A stretch of DNA of 64,000 nt from Amphiscolops sp. MND2022 (lineage: Eukaryota). The position numbers and the translations under genes are program-made. The DNA is taken from the NCBI GenBank assembly GCA_964187785.1, contig OZ076411.1, forward strand, positions 57,102,001 to 57,166,000. Reading direction: 5' to 3'. The notes under the pieces are model-generated. The model saw nothing but the letters and a program-made list of their open reading frames with translations, did not search any database and was not told where the DNA came from. This document shows, piece by piece, positions 12,731 through 47,344 of this stretch. Numbering within the stretch: the stretch's first letter is position 1; every line of letters begins with the position of its first letter.

Positions 12731-13448
12731 GAGCGCATAGGCAAGCTTAATTTGCTCAAACCATAATTTTGTGCTTTCAATACCTCGGATTCCACGACCA
12801 TACCTTTAACCATGCAAAATTGGCAAATACGTCATAAGTCCCGGATTCCACGGATTTTGTCATGGATTCCAGTAACAAATGCTTAGCTGTACGCACTGTC
12901 GGCATGCCGCTGTGTCCCGGATTCCACAAAAACATAAGTTTTTCAAAACGAACCAATCAGATTGCAGAAATCATAAATTTCCTGGATTCCACTTTGTGCT
13001 TGACGCGATACGCGGCATCTCTTCTTCAATTAAGTTCAAGTGGAAGACTGAACAAACAGAATTCTATGCACTATTTTTCGTAAATAAATTCAAAATGATT
13101 CAGACTAACACACCAATATTACACAAATATTCGTATTTTTCGAAGTTTAGAACCAGTTTTGAACAAACTGCCAGATCGTCACAATCTGCCATTATTTGAT
13201 GACATGCTGCAATTTTGGTACCAGTCATGACTATCGCTCTTCGTATTTTGGGTTTTTTTGTGTCAAAACAATTTCCATTGATATAAAATTGATTTAATTT
13301 AAATTCTTCTGCCTTTCCAATACCGATCACTCAAAATCAGCGGACCAATCAGAGAGCAGCGGCGAAAGCGTCAATAGAGCAGCAGCATTGGCGTGGAATC
13401 CAGTCCCGGATTCCACGAAAAGCAGCAAAATAGCTTGCCTGTGCACTG
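12731..13448. mobile_element. Same MITE family, copy B, inverted relative to copy A and shorter
   Basis: TA|GAGCGCATAGGCAAGCT ... AGCTTGCCTGTGCACTG|TA, giving a TA target duplication. Confidence 0.85.
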
Positions 13449-18000: not shown

Positions 18001-18964
18001 GGCAGGATAAATGTCCTTGGCTTTTTTCTTCGCCTCTTGTAGCGCGACTCCCAACATGTCAGTCTGATCTTTATCATAAGGGGCATCCCGGGCACTTCCA
18101 TACGTATACGGTGCTCCTTGATTAATTGAGCCTCCGAACGATATTGTGAAATTAGCTCAAGACTTCCGTGGATCATGAGGGACAGCTGCACTCTGCAAAC
18201 CCTGCACCGCCATTTATAAGGAGATTTTTCTTTATCCAAAGGTCCAGTGGCAGAGAACTTCAAAACTGGATGTTTCTTAAGCATGCTTCCAGTTAAAGAA
18301 TATTTTGCTCGACGTCGTTTCATACGGGATAACGAAGTAATTTGTCCCGTTTCCTGTAGAATTGCCCTAGAGTCAGTGTGCGTTGATACTTCTTCTTGAC
18401 TAGAAGTGGCCAGCATGGTTGTTGGCGCTAGGTCATCCACAATTGCTAATCCCATGGGCTGATGTAGATCGATTTCCTCTCCAGTGAGGAAAGCTGGTGG
18501 GATTCTATCTAACACGTTTGACAAGACGAGAATCTCCTGTCTGGTTAAGCTAAGAGTAGGAAGCCCCGCATCCGCGTGACCAGGATCTTCCGGAGCATGT
18601 TGAATGTCTTTTTGTAAACGTATGTTTTCCGAACCCAGTGTAACATCTAGCCCAACCTTAGGTGAAGTTGAGGAGTTGAGGGAACATCATCATTGTCTTC
18701 AGTCTGGTGTAGAACTTGACTAAATGGAAGCGAAGGTGTCTGCGAACAGCATTGGGGAATCAAATCTTTAAACATACCTTGGGTAGAATTATCAAGCGTA
18801 TTGTCCACTGTTCTCAAAGGAGTTGTGGCTGTTGGAGAACCTGAAGTGGATTCTGCAGATGGATCTTTACCCTGGCGTTGATTTACGGTAGAGGTTGGAT
18901 CAGGGTCTTCGCCTAGAGGAAGATTAGGGGAAGTCTCAACTGCTATTCCTTCGACAATCTGCAA
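15083..18964 (-). pseudogene. G1 antisense accessory gene (zinc finger plus hAT-like body), spliced and decayed
   Basis: Exon 1 ends at 17795 (RERLF|GTAAGT). Exon 2 is 17652-17167, exon 3 is 17091-16957, exon 4 is 16888-16807. The last exon (~16260-15083) contains YRSFLSKLR and RPELFRLCKHSCLCL. In-frame stops and frameshifts are present; the 5' end and last acceptor are uncertain. Confidence 0.85.
16348..16572. repeat. Minisatellite of TACGTCACTATGCGG / GTGACG-N6-CGTCA units in intron 4 of the antisense gene
   Basis: About 7 degenerate units; inverted TGACG half-sites at 16373-16390 and 16443-16460. Confidence 0.85.
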
Positions 18965-20072: not shown

Positions 20073-20289
20073 ACTCGGCATCCTACAGTTTTCGCTGTAT
20101 GCTTTCAAAGAGATGGAATTTTACTGCTAGTGGTTGGAATTGAATGAATAAGGCAGTATCACGTAATGTGATCAAGAAAGTACACACTTTCAATGACAAA
20201 CATGTGCGATAATGTTGATGTTTGATATACAAAGCCAGTGCTCTTTTGAACTTAATATGTTTGCAGAAGTTCAGACTGGTGGCAGCTCA

Positions 20290-21187
20290 TATGCTATGTC
20301 GGCGTTTGTGGGGGCAGCTGCGGTAACCCTTTTTCCACCCATTCCCCTCTTCTTCAACCCCAAAACGCCACTAACTTGTCTGGATCTCAGATTGAAGGGC
20401 AGTTAATAGAGTTAATTGACGAGCACCAAAGTCACCGGTCACGCCCCAACATCGTTTATCGACACTGAGTTTGAGGAGTCCCCTGAATTGTCTGATGACC
20501 AGGAAATGGAGGATAACCACTCATTAAATAGCTATAGTAGACCCTCCGCTACAATCTTACCAACCCCAAGAGGAAGAGGCCGAGGTAGAGGTCTGGTCTT
20601 ACGCCCAATATGAACCTATCCAACGGGGTTTTCAACAGAATCAGGGCAATTTCACTGTGATAGGAGAGAATACACAAGAAATACGAGCGAATAGTTTCAA
20701 CAATGAGTACACCAGCACACAAATTGGACTACAGATTACTAACCCAATCATGCCAACGGTCAATATTAGTAACCCCGCGACGATGATGATACAGATCCCA
20801 CCAATTATGCCCAGCTTCGCAGCAGTCCAAAGTGGTCATCCAGTTCAACCAATGCCACAGCCACAGCAAGTGACTTCAATGCAGACTAGCACCAATGACC
20901 AATGTGCTCTTGTTACCCTCAAACGAAAGGGACCTATACAAGTTGTCACCCACCGTCATGCCGACATCGCGGGATTTTGCAATTGGTGCGGTCGTACTGA
21001 CGACCAAATTGGCCGGAGAGTCTAGGAGAATATCTTCTGGGAACGGCGTACGATGCTGAGACAGTTAGGGACCGAAATATTCGGTCCCGGGCGTTCATCG
21101 ATGGGTTTGAGGTTGCCCTGTTTCGACTTCAAGTATGCAGGACTGTCGCAACCCAGGAGTTGCGTGATAGCCGTGGCCCATCAGTAA
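20290..21187 (+). pseudogene. G1 ORF3 (CxxCG-domain protein), frameshifted, ending inside the 3' LTR
   Basis: After correcting one 1-bp frameshift at ~21022, it reads CNWCGRTDDQIGRRVLGEYLLGTAYDAETVRDRNIRSRAFIDG, which aligns without gaps to G2 ORF3. The start is uncertain. Confidence 0.8.
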
Positions 21188-22687
21188 TCAACGCCAAACA
21201 AGATGGCAGCCAAAACCAACTCCCAAAGCTAGGAAGAATCAAAACTTTAAACCAGCGAACTACATTTTGTTTTGTTTATCCTGTTGGTTTTTGTCAGGAA
21301 GTCATGTAAATATAATATTTCAAAAATGTTTGCCTTGAAAGAAACCCTTCCTCATGCTGCTAATGAACATTAAAACTTCATTGACAGCCCTTATTTACAC
21401 ACACAATGAGTCACCCCTATCTCAAATGATATTGGACTTGGAAGCTTCAATACATTAGAAATCGTCCCCATATAGTAAATTGCATCTTAACATGGTACCA
21501 CTTTGCGGTATCATGCGGATCAAGGAGTGACGTATACTCGTCACCATGCGGACTTGTCGATATCATTATGCGGCATTATACGTTTCGAAGTGTGACGCAT
21601 ACTTGTCACTATGCGCTTTTTGCAGAGACACTATGCGGCATACTGCGGAACGAGTAGTGACGCATACTCGTCACTATGCGTTTCCAGCAGGACCAATTAT
21701 ATAACGTGAATACGTGTACTAGTGCTATTTGGAAAGCATCCCAAATACATTTGTTATGTTATCTTAAGCAATTTCCAGGGTTTCTTTAGTCCATTTCTCA
21801 ATGATATTTCGAAAGTCATGTAATCAAGTTGATGTTATAAGTAGTATGACGATATCTTGACGTAATCCTGTTTTTGTCTTTTTGCAACAATGACTTTGGT
21901 AAAAAAGGAGTGTCATGGTATTTTCGGAGTTATTTCATTGTGAACTGAGAGAGAGGATCATTCAAATCTCAACCGTCAACTAGTGCAGTTGTTCTCTTCA
22001 TACATCTGTAAACCTTATGGTAACATTGTGATACTCACAGATGTTGTTCTTTTGAATAGACAAGATAATTCAAATTCTTCCTCAAAAGCCAGAAACTATT
22101 TTTCACTCAAAGCAATATGGGAAACAGACGTAATAGACGTTCTAGAAAATTGGAAACCCCTTCTCCAGAGAGGGAATTAGAGAAAACGCAAGTGGAAACG
22201 TCTGTTACAGGCAAGGAGATTTCAACTAAATTGAATACGTTTGTTCAGGGAAATTCGAGTGAAAACATTTAGGAAAATCAGTTGACTGAACCCAGTCAAT
22301 TCAGCAATGAAATCCAAGTATGGACACAACTTATGGAACAAAAGAATGATGACAAAATTGAAAGAATGAGAGAAGAATTGGACAATAAACTAGAGGCTAT
22401 CTTGAGATAATTTAAGTCTAACAAAGCTACATCAACAGTAACAAACATAAGATCAGAAATCAACGAAATACAAGATTCACAACCGTGGGGATCCAAAACA
22501 ATAAGGTCAATTGGAGTTTGCATATCTAATATTGAAAACTCAGGTTCAGAAAACGACGATTATCCTCTCAGAGCTTCAAAAATGAAAGACTTGAAACATG
22601 CTGCAAATCCATTATTTCAAAACGAATCCGATGTAGACATAACGATACATTCAAACGAAGAATCCGACGCAGAAGAGGATTATCACA
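21144..22687 (+). repeat. G1 3' LTR (1544 bp), TGTCGCA...TATCACA; contains the gag start ATGGGAAAC at 22117
   Basis: Starts with the same TGTCGCA as the G2 LTR, 47 nt after the RAF motif (46 nt in G2). The end is fixed by the PBS junction at 7859. Confidence 0.75.
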
Positions 22688-22873
22688 AGTCATTTTCCGC
22701 AAATAGTGTCCGTGTCTGCTCACTAAGATGTCCCAAGAATGGCATAAACGGAATGTTCGACTATTTGAGATCCTCCCCCTCGGAAATTGAAGTACTGAGC
22801 GAGTCTGGGGGAGAATTCATAGTGGAACCGGGAAATGTACAAGAACTGGGTGAAAGATTCCGCATTGGAGGCC

Positions 22874-25334
22874 CAGCTCATATGCTATGTCGGCGTTTGT
22901 GGGGGCAGCTGCGGTAACCCTTTTCCCACCCATTCCCCTCTTCTTCAACCCCAAAACGCCACTAACTTGTCTGGATCTCAGATTGAAGGGCAGTTAATAG
23001 AGTTAATTGACGAGCACCAAAGTCACCGGTCACGCCCCAACATCGTTTATCGACACTGAGTTTGAGGAGTCCCCTGAATTGTCTGATGACCAGGAAATGG
23101 AGGATAACCACTCATTAAATAGCTATAGTAGACCCTCCGCTACAATCTTACAAACCCCAAGAGGAAGAGGCCGAGGTAGAGGTCTGGTCTTACGCCCAAT
23201 ATGAACCTATCCAACGGGGTTTTCAACAGAATCAGGGCAATTTCACTGTGATAGGAGAGAATACACAAGAAATACGAGCGAATAGTTTCAACAATGAGTA
23301 CACCAGCACACAAATTGGACTACAAATTACTAACCCAATCATGCCAACGGTCAATATTAGTAACCCCGCGACGATGATGATACAGATCCCACCAATTATG
23401 CCCAGCTTCGCCGCAGTCCAAAGTGGTCATCCAGTTCAACCAATGCCACAGCCACAGCAAGTGACTTCAATGCAGACTAGCACCAATGACCAATGTGCTC
23501 TTGTTACCCTCAAACGAAAGGGACCTATACAAGTTGTCACCCACCGTCATGCCGACATCGCGGGATTTTGCAATTGGTGCGGTCGTACTGACGACCAAAT
23601 TGGCCGGAGACTCTAGGAGAATATCTTCTGGGAACGGCGTACGATGCTGAGACAGTTAGGGACCGAAATATTCGGTCCCGGGCGTTCATCGATGGGTTTG
23701 AGGTTGCCCTGTTTGGACTTCAAGTATGCAGGACTGTCGCAACCCAGGAGTTGCGTGATAGCCGTGGCCCATCAGTAATCAACGCCAAACAAGATGGCAG
23801 CCAAAACCAACTCCCAAAGCTAGGAAGAATCAAAACTTTAAACCAGCGAACTACATTTTGTTTTGTTTATCCTGTTGGTTTTTGTCAGGAAGTCATGTAA
23901 ATATAATATTTCAAAAATGTTTGCCTTGAAAGAAACCTTCCTCATGCTGCTAATGAACATTAAAACTTCATTGACAGCCCTTATTTACACACACAATGAG
24001 TCACCCCTGTCTCAAATGATATTGGACTTGGAAGCTTCAATACATTAGAAATCGTCCCCATATAGTAAATTGCATCTTAACATGGTACCACTTTGCGGTA
24101 TCATGCGGATCAAGGAGTGACGTATACTCGTCACCATGCGGACTTGTCGATATCATTATGCGGCATTATACGTTTCGAAGTGTGACGCATACTTGTCACT
24201 ATGCGCTTTTTGCAGAGACACTATGCGGCATACTGAGGAACGAGTAGTGACGCATACTCGTCACTATGCGTTTCCAGCAGGACCAATTATATAACGTGAA
24301 TACGTGTACTAGTGCTATTTGGAAAGCATCCCAAATACATTTGTTACGTTATCTTAAGCAATTTCCAGGGTTTCTTTAGTCCATTTCTCAATGATATTTC
24401 GAAAGTCATGTAATCAAGTTGATGTTATAAATAGTATGACGATATCTTGACGTAATCCTGTTTTTGTCTTTTTGCAACAATGACTTTGGTAAAAAAGGAG
24501 TGTCATGGTATTTTCGGAGTTATTTCATTGTGAACTGAGATAGAGGATCATTCAAATCTCAACCGTCAACTAGTGCAGTTGTTCTCTTCATACATCTGTA
24601 AACCTTATGGTAACATTGTGATACTCACAGATGTTGTTCTTTTGAATAGACAAGATAATTCAAATTCTTCCCCAAAAGTCAGAAACTATTTTTCACTCAA
24701 AGCAATATGGGAAACAGACGTAATAGACGTTCTAGAAAAATGGAAACCCCTTCTCCAGAGAGGGAATTAGAGAAAACGCAAGTGGAAACGTCTGTTACAG
24801 GCAAGGAGATTTCAACTAAATTGAATACGTTTGTTCAAGGAAATTCGAGTGAAAATATTTCGGAAAATCAGTTGACTGAACCCAGTCAATTCTGCAATGA
24901 AATCCAAGTATGGACACAAATTATGGAACAAAAGAATGATGAGAAAATTGAAAGAATGAGAGAAGAATTGGACAATAAACTAGAGGCTATCTTGAGATAA
25001 TTTAAGTCTAACAAAGCTACATCAACAGTAACAAACATAAGATCAGAAATCAACGAAATACAAGATTCACAACCGTGGGGATCCAAAACAATAAGGTCTA
25101 TTGGAGTTTGCATATCTAATATTGAAAACTCAGGTTCAGAAAACGACGATTATCCTCTCAGAGCTTCAAAAATGAAAGACTTGAAACATGCTGCAAATCC
25201 ATTATTTCAAAACGAATCCGATGTAGACATAACGATACATTCAAACGAAGAATCCGACGCAGAAGAGGATTATCACAAGTCATTTTCCGCAAATAGTGTC
25301 CGTGTCTGCTCACTAAGATGTCCCGAGAATGGCA
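22874..25334 (+). repeat. Tandem copy of 20283-22744 (ORF3 + LTR 23735-25277 + 57 bp of flank)
   Basis: Offset 2590-2591 bp, about 99% identical by eye; 129-bp unique spacer at 22745-22873. Confidence 0.95.
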
Positions 25335-26901
25335 AAGAACGAAATCACAATTGCAGTTGCGGAGAACCTAAAAGCAGACCGAAAGCAAACCGGAACAGCC
25401 CAAGTCGGCGCCCCGCTCACGTTTCAAAAATATTCAGTTTTTAAATATGCAAAATGGCACTTTTGTTAAAGTTTCATCAAATTTACAGTTCCAAAAAAGA
25501 CGCAGAGGATATGCATATGACTCAAAAACCACTTTTTCCCCAAATGGAAATGGCAAAAAAACCTTTACCGAAAAAAACTATATCTTGCTCAACCGAAAAC
25601 TTCTCAAAAAACGAATAATTGAAACAATCACAAAAAAATGTCGGACAGTATTGATTTCAAAAAAAAAGGGTTTTTCAAAATCCATCCTGTTGCAAAATAT
25701 CAAAAAAAATGTATGGGGACTTTTCGAGACAATAAAAAGTTTTTGAAAAAGTCTTCCAAAGCCGAAAGGGAAAGAAAGCCGGGTGGAAGTCTTGCAGTGC
25801 CAAAAGAGTGGAAAGGGGACCCCTTTTGCTTTGGAATGGTTGCGTATTTCATGTTAGAGGCTTTGAATGCTTTCAAAATCAAGTACACGTTTGGTAAAAG
25901 TGCACATTGCACAAAAAGTGGACCGAATATTTGAAATAACGAAAAACAACTAGCCACTGTAAGAGTCGTGCTTTTTCTTCGAAAACGCGGACTAAAAATT
26001 ACATCAAACCATAATGCTGAATCACAGGGAATAGATTTTACATTTGCCAATTTTACATCGGATATTTTCTCTGTGGGCGTCTGTACACACTCTGTCATGT
26101 TACCTTTCTACATATTATCCTTGTGGCACGATGGTCTTACTTTTCATAAAAACACTTGAGTTCATCGAACTACACAAATTACCAGACAATACTGAATATA
26201 GCAAGGAAATAGATGCGGAAACTTTTTGTAATGCAAGCTGCGGTTAGAACCGTTATCCAGCTTTTCCATATTTGGGAATCATGCGAAGCCATGTCTATGA
26301 ATTTGTTACTTATAGCTATGAGCGTTGTATTATTGGATTAGCCATCGAAGGTACATATATTTGAAATTATTTGCAAACAGGTTAACCAGTTGAGTTCAAC
26401 CGTAACTGGGTTAAATCGGTATAATTTTCATGCTTCAAAAATGTCCTTCAGCAAAAGATACACATTTATATATTGTGGAAATGAAATAATTGTATTCGAA
26501 ATTGTGATACATACGTGCCATTGAGAAAAATTCCCCTTTTCAGATTAGGAGTTTATGTGTACTTACGTCAATAATTTACAAAACTAATTTGATGCATGAG
26601 AAAATATACATGGGACAGGACTGAGATTTCTAATTAAAGTCTCAAACAGAGGCCACCAAGTAAGAATCAAAATTGGCTGAACACCTATCAAATCAAGGTG
26701 TTGTCAGCTCTTTTTCGCACAAATGCATTATTTGAAGTTTTGAAATGCTTTCTTCAAAGTTTTTGAATATGTTCATCAACATGGGATTTGAAAACACACT
26801 TCCTCGAAAACACACTTTTGGAAATTTGCGTGTGTGAATTTTGGAATTCGGCTGTATTTCAGGTGAGGTTGACGATGGGATTTTAGGCAGCATTTACTTA
26901 C

Positions 26902-31992: not shown

Positions 31993-32694
31993 TTACTTTA
32001 ACATGTATGAAAGAACACCATAAGCTCCAAAAAGGATGACGATCAATAAATGGTGGATGCCGTAACCGTCGTCTTCATCACTATGATAAGAATCTACTGA
32101 ATTCTCTCTCTGACGATTTATATGGTTACTATTCGTCCCTACTGTCCTAGGGAAGTCTTTCTTGACGTCCAGGGACGTTTTCCCAGCGATTTGTTGATGC
32201 GGTCCATCTGACCTTAGGTCCCTATGTGGACGTACTTGTTCAAAAATTTTCGGATGCGGTCCATCTGACCTTAAGTCCAAATGAGTATTTTGGCTTTCTA
32301 ACACGTTCCTGATGCTAGGAATCACTTTCCCTTCAATTGCTGAGTCTATTGCATTTAAAATATGCGAATTAAGATCAGATCTCATTTCTTCTAATTTCCT
32401 GGACATTTGCGAAGAAATTTCTGAATTTATTGCTCTACTAGTTTCAACTGTAATTTCACTATTTTTACTTGCATTAGTATTCAATAAAGTCCTAAAATTC
32501 CCACTAATTGAGTTTACTTCCTTGTTGGATTTCCTTGAGTCTAAATTTAGACCAGTATCGCTAAGGTTTTCATCTCTAACTTGATCACTCTCTTGGTAAT
32601 TTCCCAACATTATATCTAAATTCTCAATATCTGACATAACGTCTGATTGTCTGGAACGCTTCTCTCTAGCTTTCTGCTTTCTAGTCGAAGGCAT
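31993..32694 (-). CDS. LTR-encoded Gag N-terminus (212 codons) reading out of the 3' LTR into flanking DNA
   Basis: Near-identical to the first 212 aa of gag up to DEDDGY, then continues GIHHLLIVILFGAYGVLSYMLK* in the flank. Expression is unknown. Confidence 0.6.
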   Translation of the reverse strand: MPSTRKQKAREKRSRQSDVMSDIENLDIMLGNYQESDQVRDENLSDTGLNLDSRKSNKEVNSISGNFRTLLNTNASKNSEITVETSRAINSEISSQMSRKLEEMRSDLNSHILNAIDSAIEGKVIPSIRNVLESQNTHLDLRSDGPHPKIFEQVRPHRDLRSDGPHQQIAGKTSLDVKKDFPRTVGTNSNHINRQRENSVDSYHSDEDDGYGIHHLLIVILFGAYGVLSYMLK

Positions 32695-33436
32695 AACAAT
32701 GGATTTGATGTTTCAACAGTGAATTCACTAATATCAATGTCAAATCAAAGTAGTCGTGTATCGTATATCAGTAATATCAATAATGATCCTTTCAACAACG
32801 GGTTCCTGGTATATATAGTTGCAGGACCATGACAATCATTATTTGGGACGTCAAGGTCCGAAAATATACGTGACGTCATGTTTACTATAAGTAGCTGAAG
32901 ATACACTACACGTCATATTACGTCAGCAGCTATAAATAGAATTAGAACAAGTTTAACTAGCTAACAGGCAACTTTGGTGACTACATGTGCATGACACTAC
33001 GTCATGTCAAACTAAACTAATCAACGGTTGAAATGCATGAAGAGGCATGGTGACCTAACGTCAGAGTGACTGCACTAAAGCACTGTGATTATAGGTAGCA
33101 CCGTATATATATGAACACTGTATGACAACGCGTCAACTAGACTGCAACGGCGAGTAGTTGACGCATTTTATTTAACATTATGGCAAACAAAAAATATTGC
33201 AAGTACTTTCATGGGGTCAACGTGACCTTAGGTCAAAACAGTAAGATAACTGGTTTCATGACTAAATGATTGCTAAATTGGATTAATATTGACAATTTCT
33301 TGTAAAACAATCTACATCAATCGTAGTTTGAGTTGTTTTAGTTTCTACAGTGGGAGCACTCCGGGTGCGGGACCAATTTGGAAGTCTTCGGGCATGACTT
33401 GATATAGCAAACCGTCACAGGCGGCAGCCTGCGACT
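32058..33436 (-). repeat. G2 3' LTR (1379 bp)
   Basis: Matches 46009-47344. The first base is T>A mutated; a short purine run (GGGGAA) lies upstream as a weak PPT. Confidence 0.95.
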
Positions 33437-34160
33437 TTCCCCGGGGGACTAAGATAAATGAGCCTGCCCGCATTCCCGCCTGGAAAGCTCGTCTTCTTGC
33501 CATTCTTTGATCATACGATTCTCCACTGACGTGCGATCCTTCAAGATACCCCAAGGTAATTTCTTCCTTGATCTCAGGGTATGATTTACCACATACAATG
33601 CATCCAGAATGGCTAGTATCGTTCGGTTGCCCGCAGTAGCTGCTTACGGAAATTGCCAATCCTGTAATATGCCGATTCTGTACCCACTGATCGGTTCTTT
33701 GGTCATGGTGTTGTTGATGTTCATAATGGTAGTAGGGCATTTGATCAGCAAGTGGCGGTGACGCCGGGGACTGTATTACTGGATCAAGCTGACTACATTC
33801 CGCAATTGGATGATGTGCGGAATCTTGGGCACAATATGTGGCTGGTGGGTGTCCTACGGCCCAATTGATTAGATCGTCAGAAGGTTCCGTGAAGGTATCA
33901 ATCGTTTCTAACAGAGAATCAGCAGGCAAGTTGAAGTCATTGAGACTTTGGGTCAGACTTGTAGTCATTGCTCGACCAGCAACTAGTTGGGGGAGAAATG
34001 GGGGCTTTTCATAGTAACAAGCTAATACCTGTATTTCGTCATCTTCTTCTTCTTTGTCCAAATGATCTTGCACTGACGTCACTGAATCCACTTCCATGTC
34101 CTCATCGGAGGACGCATATGACAGACTTGGGCGACCTTCTATGGGAAATTGTAGTGCCAT
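33345..34160 (-). CDS. G2 ORF3: intact ~271-aa protein (acidic N-terminus, Pro/Gln/His-rich middle, CxxCG domain), C-terminus encoded in U3
   Basis: Open frame 34289-33345. Probable ATG at 34160, downstream of an acceptor-like TTCTTCTCAG. Homologous to G1 ORF3. Confidence 0.8.
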   Translation of the reverse strand: MALQFPIEGRPSLSYASSDEDMEVDSVTSVQDHLDKEEEDDEIQVLACYYEKPPFLPQLVAGRAMTTSLTQSLNDFNLPADSLLETIDTFTEPSDDLINWAVGHPPATYCAQDSAHHPIAECSQLDPVIQSPASPPLADQMPYYHYEHQQHHDQRTDQWVQNRHITGLAISVSSYCGQPNDTSHSGCIVCGKSYPEIKEEITLGYLEGSHVSGESYDQRMARRRAFQAGMRAGSFILVPRGKSQAAACDGLLYQVMPEDFQIGPAPGVLPL

Positions 34161-35976
34161 CTGCTCACTATATCGGCTGAGAAGAATTTTCTTAGCAATT
34201 TTGATTTCAGAGGAAGTAGGACTGATTTTAAGGTATGTTTCGATGAGAATGGTGTATTGGGGTTGTTTTGACTTAAGGTCTAACCTCAAGATTTGCGGGA
34301 AAATGGAAAGGAAAGCCCCGCGAAGCGTCTCCTTAAATCTTCCTATTTAGGGTAGAACTGAATGAATAAGTCATCAACAATTTAGTGGTCGTGTCACTTA
34401 ACGAGGTGTGAAGCATCACTTAAGATTATTTGCCTTCCTTCTTCAAAGGCTCATAAAGCGGTGTTGGCCAGTAGCAGAAGTCTTGACTGCTATTAGCGTT
34501 TGTCAACAACGCAGTTCAAAGACTGATGGTCGGTCTGACTACCTCGTTTGTGGTAACCAATCAGGTGAATTTGGAGTAAAATACGATTAGTCGGAGATAA
34601 TTGAAGATTCGCTATGATTTAACCAATTTTCTGGAGGCAAAGCCCTAGTGAAAGTGTACCTATAATATAAAAGAATAAATGTACAAATGGATCATGTGAT
34701 AGATTTTAGACAGTAATTCGTGGTTAAAATGGTAGTACTCCGCTGGCAGGTCGGGTACCCATGTTCAGTGTAAAACATTTCAACAGTAATGTGTTTAAGG
34801 TACTGGCGTAATGGTAGATTATAGCCACGACTCTCTATTTAAGGTTATATACAGTGCCAATTTTAGATTGTACGTGAAGGGATACTAATAAGTGTGATGG
34901 CGGATGAGAGGTATTTAGGGTAATTGGCCGTGGTATTTGGTGCAGTCAATTATACCAAAGGTCCAGTAGTGGAAATAAGGTCTGATAATTTGATGGTTGC
35001 AGTCCCAATTAAGATGAGTCTTATTTCATGTAAAACGTACATGCATGCATTATGGTGCAGTCCTTTTGACCATTGGTCATTTATAGTGAAGCTGATCCAC
35101 CTCTTCTGGGAATTGAATACATGTATTCGTTTACAGTCAAGGAGAAGTATTGTCTGATTACGTAAGCAATGCTAGGTAAATAATAGGCAGCGTTCAACTG
35201 CGAGTACATTGTGACTAAACAAATATACCATATTATTGACAAGCAGCAACAGAAATTACGTCATTTGAAAGCTGTACCGTAGGTAACGCAATTGTCTATA
35301 TGTTTGTTCTGCTATTAGTACAGTTTCAATTCCAAGTGACTTGTGGTAATAAATCGCAGTTTCCAAGTAGCATCACTTAAGCTGTATCAATTTCTTCTGG
35401 AATTTGATATTGTCTTTCTGACCTTGGGACAGCCTTTTATCCTCATTTTCCTTATGATCTTTCGGAGTCACCGACATTCATAACACTGCTGTCAGTTTGA
35501 CCTAACGTCATTTGAACGTAGTTTCGTTTCAACTCCGTCTAATTGAATAATTCAATTGTCCCTATTTTACGTCTCTGGGATTGAACTACTGCGTTGTTGT
35601 TGATTCGACTGAGGACAACCGTGTTTCTCCAAACTATTTTAATTCTGCTTCTTTTGAATTGTAAATACAAATTAGCCTTGCGTTTATCCTCTCTGGGATT
35701 ATCTCTGGTTCTGGATTGTCAACCGGACTGAAGGTCACATCACGTATCTTCGCTGGAAGGAGCTATCACGACCATTTGATACGACAAATTACTGCCACAA
35801 TAGAGCGGAATTCAGACCTCCCGTCATCGAAGTATCTTCAGGTTGGTTCTTTTTAAGTGTTAAAATCTAGCTTGATCAGGGCTTTCATTTAACTAAGTTT
35901 CTTCCTCCATCGTGAAAACGTACTTAGATGTGTGAAATTTTAAATCTACTTCCGGAAGTTGTTTGAATGCGGTAAG

Positions 35977-38900
35977 ATGGATACTTTTGCAGGAAGCGAA
36001 CCGCGATTATTCATTTCCTTTCATTTAGAAAACGAAGCAAATGGCCAACCAGCTCAGGAAGCAGAAGAAATCATGGACACTAGCTCTCCCAATTTAGCAC
36101 GTAGAGAAAGAGGTGACAGTACATCAAGTGATGAAATCGAAGTGATCGAGATCACTTTATCCAGTCCCGAATGTACAAACGTTGAGTTAACTCGTCCGCC
36201 TGTTGTGTCAGTAAAAATTGAGCCGGAGATCACGGAGTCACAATTAGTCGCTGAAATCCGAAGGAGAAGTGGATTTTCAAGTAACAGCAGTACTGGCTCT
36301 GACGAAAGTTGCGGAGCATACCTGACAAGAAAACTAGGCGAGTTGGAAAAAGCAGCACAGCCAGAAGTTTCAAACGAGACCACTAGTGAAGTCAAGCAGA
36401 GTGAAAGTGAGCCAATTATTCTTCGTCCCGGCCGTAGCCCGACAGCTGGGGTAACTGTTGAACCTCCCAGGAATCAGGCTCCCTCTGGACTGACACAGAC
36501 TCTTTCCCTGGCCAAATTTATTGGCACAACCTCTAGCCCTGGTGATAAGGGTAATAAGCCAGGTGAATCGGCTGACTTCTACGAGTTCACATTTGCTCCA
36601 GCACCAAAACACAAATCCGTCCGCAGTGAGGGAGAATGCCGTCCAAATGACCCTACGTCCTCGGGCCAGATCAGGCACTTCGTAACTGAGACCCAATCAG
36701 TAAGTGGAACTGAAGTCCCAATGTTGAGTGATCATGACTCTACCCGATACGCGCGGTCAACATTGGCAGAAGCACTGGCACCTCCCGAGGTTTAGAACAT
36801 TCCTTATGATAGTGGTGAATCTGACTATGAGTCGACTGTGCGGATACCTACAGCAGCAATTAGGGAGGCTCCTATTTCCATTAGTAGCAAGGAAACACTC
36901 CGCAAATGCTTCAGTGAGACAAATCCCATAAGTCTTGCACAAGGGCACCCGACCGTGGCGTTTAACCAGGAACAGATGTGCCAAATATTGAAAGTGTTTG
37001 CTGACGAGACGGCTAAATCAACCTTTAGGATGATGAATAGTCTCATCGAGAAAGCTAGTCGACTTAATTTGAACCAGGGCCCCTACGCTTCCAATAGCAT
37101 GCATCGACCCAAATCTTTTCAATCGACGTGTACTGATTCAGAAACTGACCGTTATAAACTGCGTCACAGGACCCCGACTAAACAAAGTGACTTTTAGGAC
37201 ACTGATTACTCATGCGAGCAAACTCCCAGTCGAACGTCAGAGGTCAACATCCCAAGTCCTCCAGTACCTGGTTGCAGTCGAGATGACCCTCGGTCTCCTG
37301 AGTTAGGGCAAACCATAGACAGTCCAGGAGCTCAGACTTTAGCCGAGTTAAAGCGAGAAGCGGCAATGAGTAAAAATAAAGGAAAAAGGAATTCTAAGCG
37401 CCCAAACAGTTCAAAGACAAAGAAAGCAAAGAAGTCCGTGTGGAGGTCTAACAAGGTGATGCGCGAGGAATTATTTGAAGGCATGGGTTGAGCAAGAACA
37501 TTCGTTTCTGGACCAATGGACCCCAAATGGAACCCCTACAAGTTTTACTGCCAAATTTGTAAGGGAAATGTATCTATCTACGGCAGAGGTGCTAAGGAAA
37601 TACTCAGACATCACGCAACAGAGCGACACCTGCGCAGGGACCAACGATGGCGTTACGAACACCTGTCAGTAGAAGATCCAGCCACAAAAACATTTCGTCA
37701 CTACGTCAGTGATAAGAATGGTAAACTTTTGACACCTTACGAATTGGAACTAGAGTATCCGAAGTTCAAAGACAAAGCTCTTGTCGACATTGGTGAAAAG
37801 CTACCATTTTACGACGAGGCCATGGCAGGCAATACCCACATGACGTCTTCGTCTGAAAGCAGAGTACGAGTACAGATTTCGATTTTGGGACACTTCCTAC
37901 CTAACTTCGGTGACCTCAGGTCAATGCGCAGCTTGTGGCAGGACATAGGAATCGTCGTCAACCATCAAGCCTTGTTCTCTGACTTCAACTGGGGAAAAGA
38001 ACGCCTCTCAGTAAGTCCTCATGAAACAACTTGATCTTTTGATATGTTGGTACTTTCCACAAATCATGTATCACTTTACGGTACTGCTGTTCTGAGCTAA
38101 GGTTACTACTCGAATCCCCTCATTAGCATTCCGTATTTGTGTTTTCAGGTCCTGTTTCATCACATATTCGTGCGGATGCTGGATGACCTAGGACACTACA
38201 TCGTGGCTGAAGGGCAATTTGCTGTAGAATTTGAATTGAAAGGTCTGTTCCTCTTCTTGCACTTGCGATTCTGGCGCGACAATCAGCTATGCCGTGTCGT
38301 CTTGAAAAGGACAGGGCGAACTGTCGGAAAATTCCAAGCTGAAAAACACCTTTTCTTCAGCCTCTTGGGAGCCATTTCAGCACGACCCAATCCAGTTTGT
38401 GCCAGTGGATGTTCACTTGAGTTCGTTCAAGAACTGGACGAGGGTCCCTTGTTCACATTTGGGGTGCAAAGCTTCAAACGCTTTGACGAGGTGTCACTGG
38501 CCAAGATGATGCACAAGGACAGTTATTCCGTTTTTGGGCGAATTGACTTCTTTTCCGTACTGAAATATCTCGTCGTCTCGCTCGGAGGCAGCCTGGACAT
38601 GGAGTGCGTCTTGCTAGCCCCCGAGTTATCCAAGGTTAGGATCTTCCATTGTTTTGGGTTTTCATGCCTGACTTTGGGTCTCAATGCTTGGGTTGTTTAT
38701 AGGCTATCAGAACATGCCAACTAGACGTTTCCAAACTCCATGTACTCTGTCAGGAATTGTTGAAGCACTGGAAGTCGATCGTGGAGTTCCTCACTGCGCA
38801 TTCGCCAAAGCAGCAGATGCAGGGAGTACACAACCAGGTTGGGATTAAGTCAAATAGACCTTTGGTCAAACATTCAAATTCCTTCACAGCGATCAAATGT

Positions 38901-40144
38901 CTCTTGTTTCCAGCCCCAGAATTTGGAGGGGTCGATTATTGGAGATGAGCTCTTCACCAGCCGACTAGGGCTTTTCCAACGATTGACACGGGATTGTTAG
39001 TTTTCTCCTTTCATTTCATGCGCATTTTATCTCATCGAACTGACCTTTGGTTTGTTTAGATGCTAACGCCTTTTCACTCAGTCTGTCGGGCCGGAGGGAT
39101 AGATCCTTTTATACGTATCGTCAACTCTGCCAATTTCTTTACAAACTTGCGCGACGATGTTCCACGCCACAAGATTTGCCTCCCGAGGAAAATTGGCCCG
39201 AAATTCTCAATTTGGAGTTGAGTACCACAACTGCGCTCAGTTTCACAATTTTTCTTTCCCGAGCCAAGTTTGGTTCCAAGTTGGATGCCTGCAAAATCAA
39301 AGCTGGACTTGACAGATTAGATAATTCCAACGCAGGGCTGTCCATCGGCACACTGTCCAATAGAAATAAAGAGGAGTTTGGAAGGGCAGCACGCAGTTAC
39401 GTCACCTTTTTATTTATTTCATTTCAGGAACTGAAGGGGCTAACTAATGACCTCGTTAAAAACTTGGGTTGCTTTGATTTGGAGATCCTTTTGCTTGGAC
39501 CCATTGCACACGCAACTTACTGTCATGCTCAATTATTTACCAGTTTCCGATTACGAGGCTACTTTACTACAGATCAGGAGACTGCAAGTGGTGAAGAATA
39601 TTTGTCTTTCCTGGATGATCTGAGACGTACTTATTCAGAATTGGCGCAGCCTACTTTACTGATTCCTGACACTGTTAAATTTCATGTTGAATTGCCTTCC
39701 CTGCATAGTCGTCCTTTGCTCTACAAACTTTTTCGTTTGGCGTGTTTGTGCCTAGATGAGCCGTTTCCTGTTCTGCCCAGTGTGAAATTTGGATCAGTGA
39801 GTTCTGACGATCCTACTAGCAGTCTTATTGACGAGATTTTACCCGTCCAGTCTTATTTTGCCAATGTACCTCACAGTATTGATGCTGTTACGACCGACCA
39901 ATCCGTATCTGATTTCCTTCGTCTAGAACCTGATTTCGCTGATGGCGGACTGAGTGATACATATTGTCCCTGGCACAGTGTTAACGTCTTTGGACGTTCC
40001 AAAATCCTTGAACAGCTATCTTCCGATCGTAGTAGGCCACAAACTTCTGTCAGTTTTGCTGTCAATAAAGTTGTTGAGAGCAGTAAGTCTCACGGGACGT
40101 CCAAGTCATCTCCCAAGAAGAGCAGTAAGCGTCCTAGTCAATAG
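35977..40144 (+). pseudogene. G2 antisense accessory gene, 5 exons (35977-38010, 38149-38634, 38703-38837, 38914-38995, 39060-40144), ~1270 codons, with three premature stops in exon 1
   Basis: All introns are GT-AG (138, 68, 76, 64 bp) and the frame is continuous after splicing. Zinc finger Cx2Cx16Hx5H at 37549-37629. In-frame stops at 36793, 37195 and 37489. The start codon is uncertain and the original stop may be at 40210. Confidence 0.88.
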
Positions 40145-40406: not shown

Positions 40407-43400
40407 CTAGTATCTGTGTTCATCAGTAAAGTTTGGAGTAGGGTTAGGACGTAGATTATATTTTCCTCCCCTGGGACTTTCATTTTCTACAACCATTTCA
40501 TCACTTTCATTGCTTTGCGGTCATAGTATTCTTTGTACTTTAAGTACGACTGCATGATGTTTTTCTTCGTTTTATCGATCAGAATTTGTGTACGTCGTTG
40601 TAATTCTTCGGCAAAATCCGTTGTTGGGAGAATTTTCGGGTTGGGATTTAAGCCCAACCGGTGGTCTAGAATGTTATACGGTACTCTTCCATGGAAAATT
40701 CTGGAAGGTTCGCATCCTAGACTTGAATGATAGGTCGTATTGTAGTTGAGGACAGCCAATGGTAGATACTTGTGCCATTGGCGACGGTATTCACCGGAAG
40801 CCATTTTTAGGTTGCCCTTAAGACTGGCATGAGTTCTCTCTAATTTACCTATCGTCTGAGGATGCTTCGTCGTTGCACATTTGATCTGAATACCCAGAAT
40901 TTTTGCGACCTCGTCGACTAGACGTGAAGTAAAGGCTGTTCCTTTGTCAGTAATCAGAGTTGTTGGTAAATATGCATGCCTTGTCATAATATCAATAAGT
41001 ACTCTTGCGGTACTAGAGGCTGAAGCGTCAACTACAGGATAGGCGAAGAGGTATCTTGAGAAGACATCCAGAGCAGTAATGACATTTTCATATCCCCCAC
41101 TCGGTGGGAGGTTAGGTAAAAGGTCAATTTGTAAGGCGTCTTCAGGACCAAGATCCCATTCAGGTAAATTAAGTAGTTCAGGCGTGATTGATGGGTTTTT
41201 GATTCTTTTGTCTTTTATGCAGATTTCACATCCTTGGACCTACTTTTGACGCTTTTTGCTATTCCAGGGTAGTAATATTTTTGACGAATTTCATAAAGCA
41301 TCTTGGAGATTCCTGGATGTTTATTCGTCATTCCATGTAGTGAGTGGAGTAGCTCCGACACAAGGTGTTTAGGTAAGAGCGCCTGTCTGTATAGGACTCT
41401 TCCTGTTTCGTCATAGTAGTCTCTAGTGACAACGTCATCCTGAACGGACAGACGGTCAATTTGACTGCAGTAATGTCAGAAGCGCGAATCTTGATGTAGA
41501 ATTGTTTCAGAAGATTCTTCTTTCTGCAGTTTGAGGCGTAACTGGTGTAAAACCACGTCGTTTTGTTGCTCAATAGCCATGGTGGTAGAAGTTGACAGCA
41601 TCTGCAAACTTGTCATTTGTGAAGAAGCACCCCTGTGGGCACTGAGTTTCTCTAGGGAGATATCAGGTAATTGATTTGTTGGATGAGACCTGGCGTCCTT
41701 TTTACGTTGCCAGATTTGTTCCTCAGTTTCCTCATCCTCTTCAGTGTAGAAAATTTGGTCTTCTTCTGTCACTCCGGCCGATTGGACGTTGAGTTCAATG
41801 GGAGTGGTTGATATATCTTCGCGTATACGGAGTACAAGTTTTTCTTTAGGACAAAGCTCCAAACGAGACAAATAGTCTGCTGCGGTGTTATTTTTGCCTG
41901 GTATGTGGGCAATTGTGAAACTGAACTGAATAACGTAGTCACACGCGTTCCACAGGGTTGGTGGAATGATTTTAGTTTGGAAAAAGCGAGTGACCGACTT
42001 GTTGTCTGTTAGGATTATCACCGGTTTCAGGGTCCCCCAAAAGATATGCCCAAATTCCTTGAATGCGAAGAATATCGCTAAGAACTCTTTCGCTTAGATA
42101 GACATTTTCAGTTCGGTGGGACTAAAGGTCTTGGATCCATATGCTACGGGTGCGAAAGACTTTCGCGTTGAAGTATACTTCTCACTTGGATCGTCCTCGA
42201 TGAGAACTGCGTAACCTGTCGCCAAGAAGCTAGCATCAGTCATTAATGCTATCTGCTTATTAGGCAGAGGTTGTTTGAGTGCAAGTTCACAACATCGGTC
42301 AAGAGCTTTGTTGATCTCGGTGAATTGTTCTAACAGATCGGGTGTCACTATGACTTTGGCATCGTTTTTCAGTAGTTTGAAGAATGGTGTAAGTTTCTCT
42401 GACAGCCTTGGGATATAATTGCGATAATAATTGAGGAATCCCAAGTATCGCTCGAGAGCCGTTTTGGTTTTGGGAAATTTGGTCTTCTCTAGGAAGTTTT
42501 GGACTCTGGGTCGTTGTGGCCGCACTCCTTCAGGAGTGATGGTACGTCCCAGAAAGTCGATTTCCTTGGCGCCAAAGTGGCATTTGTGCATCGTGAGTTT
42601 GAGACCTGCAGTCCGGGTGCACTGAAACGTAGCTGTAAGGTTTCGAATCAGCTGCTCAGCAGTGTTTGCCGCGATTCCGATATCATCGACGTCCTGTGCG
42701 CATTGGTCAGCTTTGATCACCTTGTCTAAATAGCTCGAAAAAGCAGAAAGAGCTCTGCTGAGACCTTGCGCCAATCTGCGGTATGCGAATGTCCTGCTAG
42801 CAAAATTGAATGCAAGCATCTCGATGGACCTCTGGTCCGCCATTTGTAGACAATGATATGCCTGCGAACAATCTAATTTACAGAACAGGCGTTTGCCTGC
42901 CATGTGCTGTGCGGCGTCCGTTAAAGTACTCAAAGGATGATTGTTGTTGATATAATCATCAGAGATCAAATATTTGATCTTGCGAAGATCGACCAAGAGT
43001 CGTAATTTGCAATTTGGTTTTTTCTGGGCAAAGATTGGACTTGCATATTTAGAGAATGGAAGTGTGGTTATGATTCCATATCGATGTAGGAGGGCTATTT
43101 CGACGAGAATATCTTCTTTGAGATTAATTGGCGTTAGAAGGCTTTGACTATAAGCTGGGGATTCGTCTTTAGGTGTGAGCTTGACCTTGAATTCCTCGTT
43201 CATGCCTATATCAAATCGGTGTCTCGCAAATATGTCATGAAATTCGCCGAGTAACTCTTCAATTTGGGTGATTTCAGCTGGTTGCAACGTAGAGTCTGTC
43301 CAGTCAAAATTGGCAAGGAATTGGTTTCTAGACTCAGGGTCATCCTGAGGGTTGAGTTTTTCCAGTTCCTGGAGGTTTTGTAGTTCCTTCAGGATTCGTT

Positions 43401-44860
43401 GCTGAATCGGGGTATGGAGCTGAGGGTCTCCAGGTTCTTCTGGTGTAGGAAACTAGTAGTTTTCTTGGTCTTCCCCAGTCCCTGTAGATTGAATCAAACT
43501 GCTTGCGTAATAGGCAGCATTTTCTGGATTATCTTGCAGGAGGTGCCATGTGGTAACCGCGTCAATGGGTTTGACGTACTTCATTTGCTCTGGCGTCATG
43601 ACAGAAAAAGTGGCAATGTCCGAACCCCGTTTGAGGGTATATGGCTGATCAGTGAAATTATTCACGTGGATCGAAACCTGACCTTGGGTCAGTGTGACTA
43701 GAGCGGCGCAAAAGGCTATATCACCGTCCTCAGTGAGGGCGTTGCTCAGTTGGAGGATTCCGGTGACATTAGTGTCAGCATATATATTGGAGTACATGGA
43801 GACCACGTGTCTGTCATTGGGCGGGATAATATTGTCCTCGCGTATAGTGACAGGTTCCATGACGTTAGTGTACTTGTGGTCCGCTGTCTTCAACTGCATA
43901 GAAAAGAATTGGAATATTAAAACTCCCTGCCTCATGTCCAATATAGTATTATTCCTTTGAGGAATGAAAGACCAATTAGCGGACTTGTGAGCCTTTCCAT
44001 GACTATGAATATCTCGTGGAATTCGATGTCCCCGACTTCAAATTTGAGTTCAACAGTGCTCTTTGGGGTTTCCAGTTGTCCATTGGCAACCATTATCTGG
44101 AAGTTGGGTGCTGGTCCCTCTTTGACTATCGACTGGGGGGCTAATAATCGGATTTTACGTAGATCAGCTTCTGGGATCGCACTAGATAGAGCTCCCGTGT
44201 CTACTAGGCCATCTAATGTTAGTTCGCCAAAATCCATGGGAAAATAAAGCATACGTCTCTTATACTTTAGTCCAAGATTTGATGTCAACGGAACATAATC
44301 GGGTTCACCGTCTCGTGAGATTAGGATGTTCACAAATCGTTCCTCTACGGTTGCAGTCAATGTGACCACAGGTCCATTTTGAGAGAACTCTTTCGGTGGG
44401 TCTTCCTGAGTGACCAAATTGGTGGCAGCCCATTCCTCTTGCCAAGGGTCTACGAGAGCCTTGGTCAGAGCTGGGTTGAGATTTTTGTCGATTTCGTTGG
44501 AATCTAGTTCTGTTTCCAAAGGGTTTTTGTGGAAATTGGTATAGAAATGGAGGTGATGTTGGTTGTAGATCTGAGCGTCCCAACAAGGATCGAAACCGAG
44601 ATCTTTATCGCGGTAGTATAGGTTATAGTCATCTATAGGAGGTAGAGGTCGGATAGTAGTAGTATTACCTTGCAGTCTGTCGGACTGATGGTCCAAGTCA
44701 ATTAAATTGGTGGGAGTATTTTTCACCTGCTGCTGCCAGTCAGCTGATGAGTTTGCTTTAAGGGATGAGTAGTATTCGATGTAATATATAGTAGAAGGGT
44801 CAGAAATTATGTACTGTCTGACGCGTAGTTTACCATTAAAGCAGAGTCGTGGCGAATCTA
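40407..44860 (-). pseudogene. pol: G2 pol (protease, RT, RNase H, integrase with C-terminal deletion)
   Basis: LVDTGA; RLLVDLRK, FAYRRLAQGL, DVDDIG (YVDD mutated); MTDASF; HPGISKM; TDKGTAF...KLERTH; ends KYNLRPNPTPNFTDEHRY*. Confidence 0.95.
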
Positions 44861-44867
44861 GTTTTTT
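44861..44867 (-). promoter_or_regulatory. Predicted -1 frameshift slippery site A AAA AAC before the gag UAG
   Basis: The -1 frame is open from this site through the protease ORF to 43932. Confidence 0.75.
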
Positions 44868-45994
44868 GGGTTTTTGAGGATAGACGTGGTGGGTTTGTTA
44901 TTGTTGGAGTCATCTTGACTCATAGTAGTTTCTCCTGGTTTGGAATTTTCCAAATTGAGGTTTTTGGGCTTGAGGTGAGCTCCAGCGCCTTTCCAACATC
45001 GTTCCGCCGGGTGATTTGTTTTGTCGCAAGTCGGACATTTTGGATATTCTTTCTTGGTGTCCTGCCCTTCAATGCGGCGTTGTTCCTCCTTTCTTTTGAG
45101 TTTGCGGCAGTCGTCTTTGACATGCCCGGGTTTTTTGCAGTAATTGCAAGTAATTTTTGGGTCAATGCCAGATGAGAGGAGGCCAGTACCCGGTCGTGTT
45201 GTTGTCGGGGCTGTGGACATTGTGGGGACGTGGATGTCGTCGCTTTCCTCAAGTCCATTCAACTCCAATTCACGTTCGAGGTGTGTGACAATCTCTGCGT
45301 AGGTCGCATTTTCAAGTCGCGCCATATTGACTGAGCGTTTCAGTTTGGGCGGCAGTTTAGCATAAAGCAGACTGTCAATCATTGCTTGAGCATGTTCCCT
45401 AAAGGCTTTTTCAGCTCCTTGGTTAAGTTCTTCAAGGAAATCGGGCAATTTCATAGTATTCGGGTCAAATACTAGTTTATGCCACTTGTGTTTGGCAGTT
45501 GCCTGAGACTCAGCTTTGACATATTTCCTACGGAAGACCGCTAGTATATCTTCCAAGGTTTGTCAATTGGTTGAATTGATGTTACGGAATGTCTGTAGAG
45601 CGTTTTTGCGTAGCAATGAGTGAAAATGGTTGATTTTCATTGTTTCCGTGATGTCTGGTTGCATTTTTATCATCGTATGAAAAAGATCTTCAAACAGTTC
45701 AAATTTTTCAGATTTGCCATCAAATGTCAGTGTTGTCGTACTAAATGGTCGTACCATCAGTGTCTGTGCTGATGGTTTGTTGTTCATACCCATAATCACG
45801 TCAGCAAGTCGATTAATGGGGTCTATTGTTGGTTCGGAAGGTACATCTCGGTTATTGGTGGGGACTGTTGGGAATTGCGCCGGGATGGTTGTGTCAAGCG
45901 TATCGTCGGTGACACACTGTTGGTGTGAACTTTTATTTCGAAATTGCATGGGCCGTCCGGTCAGGAACTCAGGGACCATTTGAGGGGTAAGGTT

Positions 45995-46008
45995 GGCTCC
46001 TGTTACCA
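45995..46008 (-). promoter_or_regulatory. G2 primer-binding site TGGTAACAGGAGCC, translated within gag as MVTGA
   Basis: Immediately follows the LTR end ...TTACGACA. Confidence 0.9.
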
Positions 46009-47344
46009 TGTCGTAACCGTCGTCTTCATCACTATGATAAGAATCTACTGAATTCTCTCTCTGACGATTTATATGGTTACTATTCGTCCCTACTGTCCTA
46101 GGGAAGTCTTTCTTGACGTCCAGGGACGTTTTACCAGCGATTTGCTGATGCGGTCCATCTGACCTTAGGTCCCTATGTGGACGTACTTGTTCAAAAGTAT
46201 TCGGATGCGGTCCATCTGACCTTAGGTCCAAATGAGTATTTTGGCTTTTTAACACGTTCCTGATGCTAGGAATCACTTTTTTTTCAATTGCTGAGTCTAT
46301 TGCATTTAAAATATGCGAAGTAAGATCAGATCTCATTTCTTCTATTTTCCTGGACATTTGCGAAGAAATTTCTGAATTTATTGCTCTACTAGTTTCAACT
46401 GTAATTTCACTATTTTCACTTGCATTAGTATTCAATAAAGTCCAAAAATTCCCACTAATTGAGTTAACTTCCTTGTTGGATTTCCTTGAGTCTAAATTTA
46501 GACCAGTATCGCTAAGGTTTTCATCTCTAACTTGATCACTCTCTTGGTAATTTCCCAACATTATATCTAAATTCTCAATATCTGACATAACGTCTGCATG
46601 TCTGGAACGCTTCTCTCTAGCTTTCTGCTTTCTAGTCGAAGGCATAACAGTGGATTTGATGTTTCAACAGTGAATTCACTAATATCAATGTCAAATCAAA
46701 GTAGTCGTGTATCGTATATCAGTAATATCAATAATGATCCTTTCAACAACGGGTTCCTGGTATATATAGTTGCAGGGCCAAGACAATCATTATTTAGGAC
46801 GTCAAGGTCCGAAAATATACGTGACGTCATGTTTACTATAAATAGCTGAAGATAGACTAAACGTCATTTTACGTCAGCAGCTATAAATAGAATTAGAACA
46901 AGTTTAACTAGCTAACAGGCAACTTTGGTGACTACATGTGCATGACACTACGTCTTGTCAAACTAAACTAATCAACGGTTGAAATGCATGAAGAGGCATG
47001 GTGACCTAACGTCAGAGTGACTGCACTAAAGCACTGTGATTATAGGTAGCACCGTATATATATGAACACTGTATGACAACGCGTCAACTAGACTGCAACG
47101 GCGAGTAGTTGACGCATTTTATTTAACATTATGGCAAACAAAAAATATTGCAAGTACTTTCATGGGGTCAACGTGACCTTAGGTCAAAACAGTAAGATAA
47201 CTACTTTCATGACTAAATGATTGCTAAATTGGATTAATATTGACAATTTCATGTAAAACAATCTACATCAATCGTAGTTTGAGTTGTTTTAGTCTTCGGG
47301 CATGACTTGATATAGCAAACTGTCACAGGCGGCAGCCTGCGACA
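46009..47344 (-). repeat. G2 5' LTR (1336 bp; ~42-bp deletion relative to the 3' LTR near 47293)
   Basis: TGTCGCAGG...GACA; the deletion is flanked by AGT microhomology. Confidence 0.95.

Follow-up and report, generated by a model that had tools for sequence, protein, structure and literature searches.

What does a retrotransposon gain from a gene that runs through its PPT and ends inside its own 3' LTR? The question is raised by ORF3, an accessory gene found in a window of 64,000 nucleotides (the whole stretch of DNA analysed) from Amphiscolops sp. MND2022, which a preliminary description had presented as a small zinc-binding regulatory protein in a Nef-like position. We have examined the element that carries ORF3, its relatives, and the sequences with which the gene shares the 3' end of the element.

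The element and its ORF3 gene

The G2 element, which carries ORF3, is 15.3 kb long, lies on the minus strand (Table 1) and is a Ty3/gypsy-type LTR retrotransposon, with two LTRs, a 5 bp target duplication (TCCAC) flanking both ends, a primer-binding site, a PPT, gag and a gypsy-type pol. The order following gag is PR-RT-RH-IN, the gypsy-type RNase H and H2C2 integrase models of Pfam are matched, and gag gives a weak DUF1759 score in Pfam too; a dUTPase-like domain between protease and RT (43456-44037, minus) is a weak match, with a best E of 0.00046 in L078. Gag coding sequence fills about 630 nt of each LTR family-wide (31993-32712 and 45563-46663 of the window, minus). The G2 3' LTR starts with AGT at 33436, where its relatives have TGT, and 43 nt of it at about 33340-33385 are absent from the 5' LTR.

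A related element in the window, G1, has a tandem duplication of ORF3 and the 3' LTR at 20283-25345 (99% identity, 2,590-nt period), and the G1 peptide quoted in the preliminary description occurs twice within it, near 20978 and 23569. Inverted repeat arms (9349-10294 and 12728-13423; 82-91%) break the G1 pol and are perhaps an inserted or rearranged element. Tandem units of 65-70 nt, rich in ATGCGG and TGACG, are present in G1 both internally and in U3 (16337-16579, 21496-21690 and 24086-24280), and ATGCGG arrays also occur in the spacers of G1-type elements. Pieces of other, more distant LTR elements, including zinc knuckle and RT-like sequences, are found at 3783-6585 and 52981-53511.

Table 1. 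Features of the G2 and G1 elements, in window coordinates
Feature	Position	Strand	Remarks
G2 5' LTR	46009-47344	-	TG...CA; 94.7% identity to 3' LTR
G2 primer-binding site	45996-46008	-	
G2 gag	44861-46645	-	One stop; begins within 5' LTR, frame passes through primer-binding site
G2 pol	40410-44873	-	Protease, dUTPase-like, RT, RNase H, integrase (Pfam); broken in G2 copy
G2 antisense spliced gene	35977-40144	+	Four or more exons; C2H2-type zinc finger; in-frame stops in G2 copy
G2 antisense gene exons	Exon 1 to 38010; exon 2 38149-38634; last exon from 39060	+	
Conserved spacer module	34744-34829	-	CGTGGC ... CTGCCA; candidate internal two-way promoter
ORF3, accessory gene	33345-34160	-	271 aa; acidic disordered N-terminus and conserved C-terminal core
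SIM-like N-terminal region of ORF3	34000-34160 (approximate)	-	Two hydrophobic cores flanked by Ser/Asp/Glu
ORF3 62-aa core	33417-33602	-	CxxC knuckle, two helices, third Cys within U3
PPT-like stretch	33437-33447	-	Within ORF3 coding sequence; adjoins LTR start
G2 3' LTR	32058-33436	-	1379 nt; ends CA; contains last ORF3 codons and copy of gag 5' end
Spaced inverted repeat	32828-32853		TGA[CT]-N16-GTCATG; directly upstream of TATA box 32810-32817
G1 antisense gene exons	15273-18626	-	Same cassette
G1 ORF3 homologue	20287-21184	+	Frameshifted; second copy 22807-23775
G1 3' LTR starts	21144 and 23735		

The ORF3 frame is open as first described and contains the quoted G2 peptide; relative to L075 the G2 copy lacks four codons near the N-terminus, absent from its first hydrophobic core. 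Openness had been taken as telling given the stops in neighbouring genes, but these hold 15 breaks in 10,242 nt, so that an intact 813 nt (P about 0.30) is unremarkable and carries no signal. The gapless alignment claimed for G1 and G2 holds between the G2 core and unbroken G1-type relatives, but G1 itself needs a frameshift after the CxxC part. Similarly, the frame does continue into U3, which contains the third Cys, but G1 reaches the GLSQ residues only via a second frameshift. The C-terminal core with the CxxCG consensus is conserved, and its invariant residues across both branches of the family are only three cysteines and one Glu. The two branches have no fourth zinc ligand in common and Pfam scores are marginal; a zinc-binding domain (C4 finger, treble clef or Rad50 hook) is at most a candidate.

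The position of the gene relative to the LTR is highly constant. The distance from the AF codons to the start of the LTR is 46 nt in G2 and 47 nt in the broken G1 copies, as had been noted, and TGT is found at exactly 46 nt in 70 of 74 loci, the exceptions being the G2 copy (AGT), two G1 copies and one locus misparsed owing to a stop. At least 200 nt of LTR sequence lies downstream of ORF3 in 70 of 71 parsed search loci. Among 31 elements viewed at 20 kb (30 picked for long open ORF3 frames, and G2), an upstream LTR-like repeat and an RT are each present in 30, and in this sample ORF3 does not appear apart from LTR elements.

The family is large. A 77-aa core query yielded 4,973 candidates in the 1.07-Gb genome, and all 150 of those scored were matches (68-100% identity); three further queries yielded 1,222, 4,547 and 3,182 candidates, which overlap. 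Protein searches gave 81 G2-type and 98 G1-type clusters, nameless and lacking Pfam domains, and searching with a profile retrieved 617 representatives (E ≤0.001), the more divergent of the best 150 all resembling family members. There are two deep branches and four sub-branches, with cores 22-34% identical between branches and N-termini that do not align by eye. The family probably extends to other species, since some clusters occur only on ENA/JGI contigs of 1-5 kb, one of these has a best own-genome match of 72%, and two JGI contigs (two loci, from a second metagenome scan) carry ORF3 with the same LTR junction; no ORF3 locus was found in a first metagenome scan, nor any ORF3 in viral contigs. 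Matches spaced by 15.16 kb (G000:C13:16092604, 16107765 and 16122926) are probably tandem elements with common LTRs.

ORF3 is selected as a protein and is fixed across the PPT/U3 junction. In unsaturated pairs from three groups dN/dS is 0.04-0.10 for the core and 0.15-0.18 for the N-terminus; pairs compared over the whole of ORF3 have 0.06-0.20 between subfamilies, with synonymous positions almost saturated, and the two closest pairs have 0.29-0.40.

The core is predicted by AlphaFold to form a knuckle and two helices in a helix-loop-helix arrangement (helices at pLDDT 86-97), while the full-length model (pLDDT 37.7 overall, too low for use as a whole, and below 50 for residues 1-193) has an unstructured N-terminus. 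The family was rightly called unrecognised: no homologue of known function was found in Pfam, PDB, Atlas or fold searches. Specifically, there was no Pfam match at E 0.01, with marginal and scattered scores only among 49 members, and none in PHROGs; PDB sequence profiles gave a best E of only 0.13-0.29, and the ESM Atlas no usable match for the core. Foldseek with the domain model returned nothing at E ≤0.001 in PDB or BFVD, which does not in itself make the fold new, and VIA-align gave generic two-helix matches (best Z 4.8, rmsd 3.0, 45 aligned). No fused form was seen among proteins of 581-2000 aa, a weak indicator. The view that ORF3 is not an Env protein stands, as a TM segment (hydropathy >1.6 over 19 residues) is suggested in only one of 54 full-length proteins, and there marginally (1.61).

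The antisense gene, the spacer and U3

Two features escaped the preliminary description: the SIM-like N-terminus of ORF3 discussed below, and an antisense gene with a promoter-like spacer. The antisense gene sits between integrase and ORF3, and with ORF3 forms a head-to-head two-gene cassette; 29 of 31 elements contain its last exon. It comprises roughly 1,200 codons in both the G1 and G2 elements, with no family match. A GT donor follows exon 1 in 14 of 16 copies (the other two unparsed), a YAG acceptor is present at the last exon in all 16, at least one extra small exon exists, and dN/dS is 0.09-0.12 where measurable. A suspected origin from hAT transposases found no support in HHalign comparison with host hAT ORFs, where few and shallow templates gave a best probability of 3.4%, and the last exon has no usable match in the ESM Atlas. 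Variant copies also occur (L115/L116 and L127/L128): one retains ORF3 and some of the antisense gene without an RT match; in the L127 variant, RT and ORF3 are present and a match to the antisense gene is absent.

The spacer between the two genes contains CGTGGC in 27 of 27 elements, followed 64-111 nt on by CTGCCA in 26, with CCAAT boxes in most G1-type copies and, by eye, an Inr-like TCAG[TC] some 60-90 nt 5' of the ORF3 ATG in many copies. From these motifs we read the module as a candidate two-way internal promoter. The motif AAAATTGC.AA.AAA is kept about 30-40 nt 5' of the ORF3 ATG (near 34190-34205; also L133) in G2-type elements and a metagenome contig. The earlier comparison with Nef thus captures the overlap with PPT and U3, but not the promoter-like module upstream of ORF3 or its place as half of a divergent pair; moreover, none of 49 members matches the Nef Pfam family, and Nef is absent from the fold-search matches listed, although this latter absence does not exclude it.

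Within U3, TGACG ranks first of 512 five-mers for enrichment (71 versus 17.9 in 20 LTRs with U3 ends set by eye). The spaced inverted repeat listed in Table 1, is a motif chosen post hoc and by eye; 22 of 26 LTRs carry it, and internal regions have none.

While RT is 72-99% identical family-wide, the accessory genes have diverged far more, and in a tree of family members only, the G1-G2 branch measures 0.21 for RT and 3.2 for the antisense exon. By pairwise identities between subfamilies, L093 and L099 are 97% identical in U3 and 58% in ORF3, whereas L117 and L119 are 95% identical in ORF3 and 74% in U3; the pairings of the antisense gene differ again from those of ORF3, and all three components have been shuffled among subfamilies. 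Because ORF3 is not tied to a particular U3, any effect it has on the LTR cannot be subfamily-specific, and it more likely targets a conserved host factor than the DNA of its own subfamily.

A SIM-like N-terminus and the possible role of ORF3

The SIM-like motif is the one N-terminal feature common to both branches and all four sub-branches. Of 54 non-redundant ORF3 proteins, 46 have a SIM-type pattern within their first 70 aa, compared with a mean of 10.4 and a maximum of 20 in 500 composition shuffles; the regular expression was composed after the motif was seen, and the test overstates the case because the 54 proteins are related. With a hydrophobic core and an adjacent Ser/acidic run in a disordered region (low pLDDT), the N-terminus resembles a phospho-regulated SUMO-interacting motif and is a likely SUMO-binding site. 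Against a SUMO reading counts the shortness of such strings, which occur frequently in disordered tails of acidic composition. By eye, G2-branch ORF3 has no clear nuclear-localisation signal. SUMO is central to piRNA-guided silencing, and the host genome contains L164, which we take to be a SUMO-like exon. In Drosophila, SUMO connects piRNA targeting with heterochromatin (10.1101/2021.07.27.453956), and in cytomegalovirus IE2, phosphorylation by CK2 of serines adjacent to a SIM tightens SUMO binding 8-fold and supports transactivation (10.1101/655282). The likeness to IE2 as described there is that an N-terminal SIM lies next to CK2 serines, within a region that is acidic and disordered; this is a short-motif analogy, as IE2 has its own DNA-binding domain and we found no homology to ORF3.

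Selection on the protein, a SIM-like motif in every sub-branch, the IE2 analogy, the part of SUMO in piRNA silencing and the SUMO-like host exon, the divergence of the accessory genes far beyond that of RT, the lack of a TM segment, the TGACG-rich U3 and the spacer module lead us to favour, although at somewhat less than even chances, the interpretation that ORF3 is a SUMO-binding regulator of the nucleus, through which transcription of the element persists in the face of host silencing. ORF3 would be made from a putative short internal mRNA that runs from the spacer to an end within the 3' LTR. Presumably in the nucleus, its N-terminal motif, with serines probably phosphorylated by CK2, would dock onto SUMOylated chromatin proteins, while the CxxC/helix-hairpin core would bind a conserved host protein or a partner; SUMO-dependent corepressors might then be displaced, or coactivators recruited, at the LTR, with an effect that we presume to be activating. 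ORF3 itself is probably not a DNA reader, a role more likely to fall to the antisense zinc-finger protein or to host factors at the TGACG-rich U3. The regulatory protein postulated earlier gains in this way a definite lead in its SIM-like N-terminus, while a transactivator or silencing suppressor is something we still only infer. A bolder version, which is possible but about which we have considerable doubt, is that of a two-gene anti-silencing cassette expressed from one internal two-way promoter. In it ORF3, as a SUMO reader whose Cys/helix-hairpin domain would be new, and the zinc-finger protein of the spliced antisense gene would jointly counter heterochromatin that depends on SUMO and piRNA, so that the family could spread through a 1-Gb genome.

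The predicted SUMO binding could equally serve repression, integration or RNA export. The Daxx corepressor SIM and Ty1 p22 are models for a SUMO-dependent repressor or a copy-number brake acting on the element itself, and the same SIM evidence would fit; ORF3 is also interchangeable among subfamilies, a property that a brake working in trans might have. Corepressor function is indeed known for SIM proteins (PMC12295420), but the thousands of candidate copies, together with LTR pairs at least 98% identical in 21 of the 31 elements picked for open ORF3, indicate that the family has been expanding recently, and we regard a brake as quite unlikely. Still unlikely, if a little less so, is an adaptor at the particle or integration stage, in the manner of Vpr/Vpx, that brings the incoming cDNA complex to nuclear sites rich in SUMO or eliminates a restriction factor; a small folded core with a SUMO-type docking motif, retained family-wide, would suit it, and the dUTPase-like domain hints at host pressure on cDNA, but ORF3 would appear to be a separate transcription unit, and Pfam shows no RING-like or other ligase domain in it.

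The helix-loop-helix core, with conserved arginines in the second helix of the predicted structure, invites comparison with Rev-like proteins that bind element RNA for export or processing, all the more so as CERV is a cysteine-loop export factor of an invertebrate gypsy element (PMC10309623). However, the core is charge-neutral (mean D+E 7.3, K+R 6.8), and the sense splice acceptor 5' of the ORF3 ATG in the G2 copy is not conserved in relatives, so that the need for such export is not evident and the proposal is improbable. We consider it more improbable still that ORF3 is a zinc-hook-like homodimer scaffolding the antisense zinc-finger protein on the U3 inverted repeat as a sequence-specific two-component transactivator: a CxxC followed by a long helix, the frequency of that repeat and the divergence of both genes around a single spacer agree with it, yet the Rad50 zinc-hook score in Pfam is marginal and found in just two of 49 members (best E 0.0069), and ORF3 and the antisense gene have been shuffled between subfamilies. 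Finally, as the last 30 codons overlap PPT and U3, conservation might reflect constraint on the DNA of the PPT and LTR end, with no protein involved. This is scarcely credible, and is refuted by at least 200 codons upstream of the PPT that keep the protein despite saturated synonymous sites; the third Cys, moreover, uses both TGC (41) and TGT (30) in 74 loci.

Comparison with known systems

We know of few counter-silencing proteins from animal retrotransposons, and ORF3 would likely help its element to resist host gene silencing. Neither an element-encoded SUMO reader nor the ORF3 domain or two-gene cassette was described among the literature matches listed, a scope that leaves aside most subscription journals and the repeat databases. 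Extra ORFs in LTR elements are already familiar. Acoel genomes are rich in LTR elements (PMC9911081), which may be relevant here. The ORF3 family could explain how LTR elements rose to dominance in genomes of this kind; recently expanding, it offers hundreds of natural variants, a short motif and a small domain without a fold match.

In the plant Ty3/gypsy elements Retand, Grande and RIRE2, 2.9-6.6 kb separate pol from the 3' LTR, and this region carries conserved antisense ORFs, including the TRP28 antisense ORFs, to which a regulatory role has been ascribed (PMC11963269; PMC7264820). The likeness to Retand, Grande and RIRE2 lies in this long region and its conserved antisense ORF, but here the genome is an animal one, the antisense gene has at least four exons and a C2H2 finger, the sense gene crosses the PPT into U3, and no Pfam family is common to the two. 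CERV of the C. elegans element Cer1 is a non-Env nuclear accessory protein with a cysteine loop and phospho-regulation (PMC10309623), and is similar to ORF3 as a non-Env accessory protein of an invertebrate gypsy element; it differs in being 517 aa long, spliced from gag-region exons and equipped with a G-protein-like domain, whereas ORF3 lies at the 3' end and has a 62-aa core. The bdelloid rotifer elements Vesta, Juno and TelKA, also from invertebrates, combine a pol dUTPase with third ORFs of various kinds, the shortest about 220 aa long (PMC5408684). These are Env-like, TM, GDSL, DEDDy or coiled-coil proteins, and ORF3 has no TM segment or such Pfam matches.

VANC is associated with short motifs arrayed in non-coding regions, as the ATGCGG arrays of G1-type spacers and U3 recall. 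The VANC proteins of VANDAL transposons are fast-evolving element-encoded accessory factors (PMC13547354), a further likeness to ORF3, although they belong to plant DNA transposons and are MAIN-derived, and we found no similarity to ORF3. Odin retrotransposons have gag and pol only, with a dual RNase H (tether) (PMC9040795). In comparison, the elements described here have two extra genes and, by Pfam, one RNase H region.

In HTLV-1, Tax and HBZ are sense and antisense regulators encoded between pol and the 3' LTR, with CRE-type motifs in U3, and lentiviral Nef overlaps PPT and U3. The ORF3 elements differ from both: env is absent, pol is of the gypsy type, no match in sequence or fold was seen, and ORF3 apparently has a promoter of its own. 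They illustrate that gypsy elements, too, can evolve sense and antisense regulatory regions of the type found in complex retroviruses. If the bolder version of our interpretation is correct, the cassette would be a complex-retrovirus-like regulatory region that evolved outside the retroviruses.
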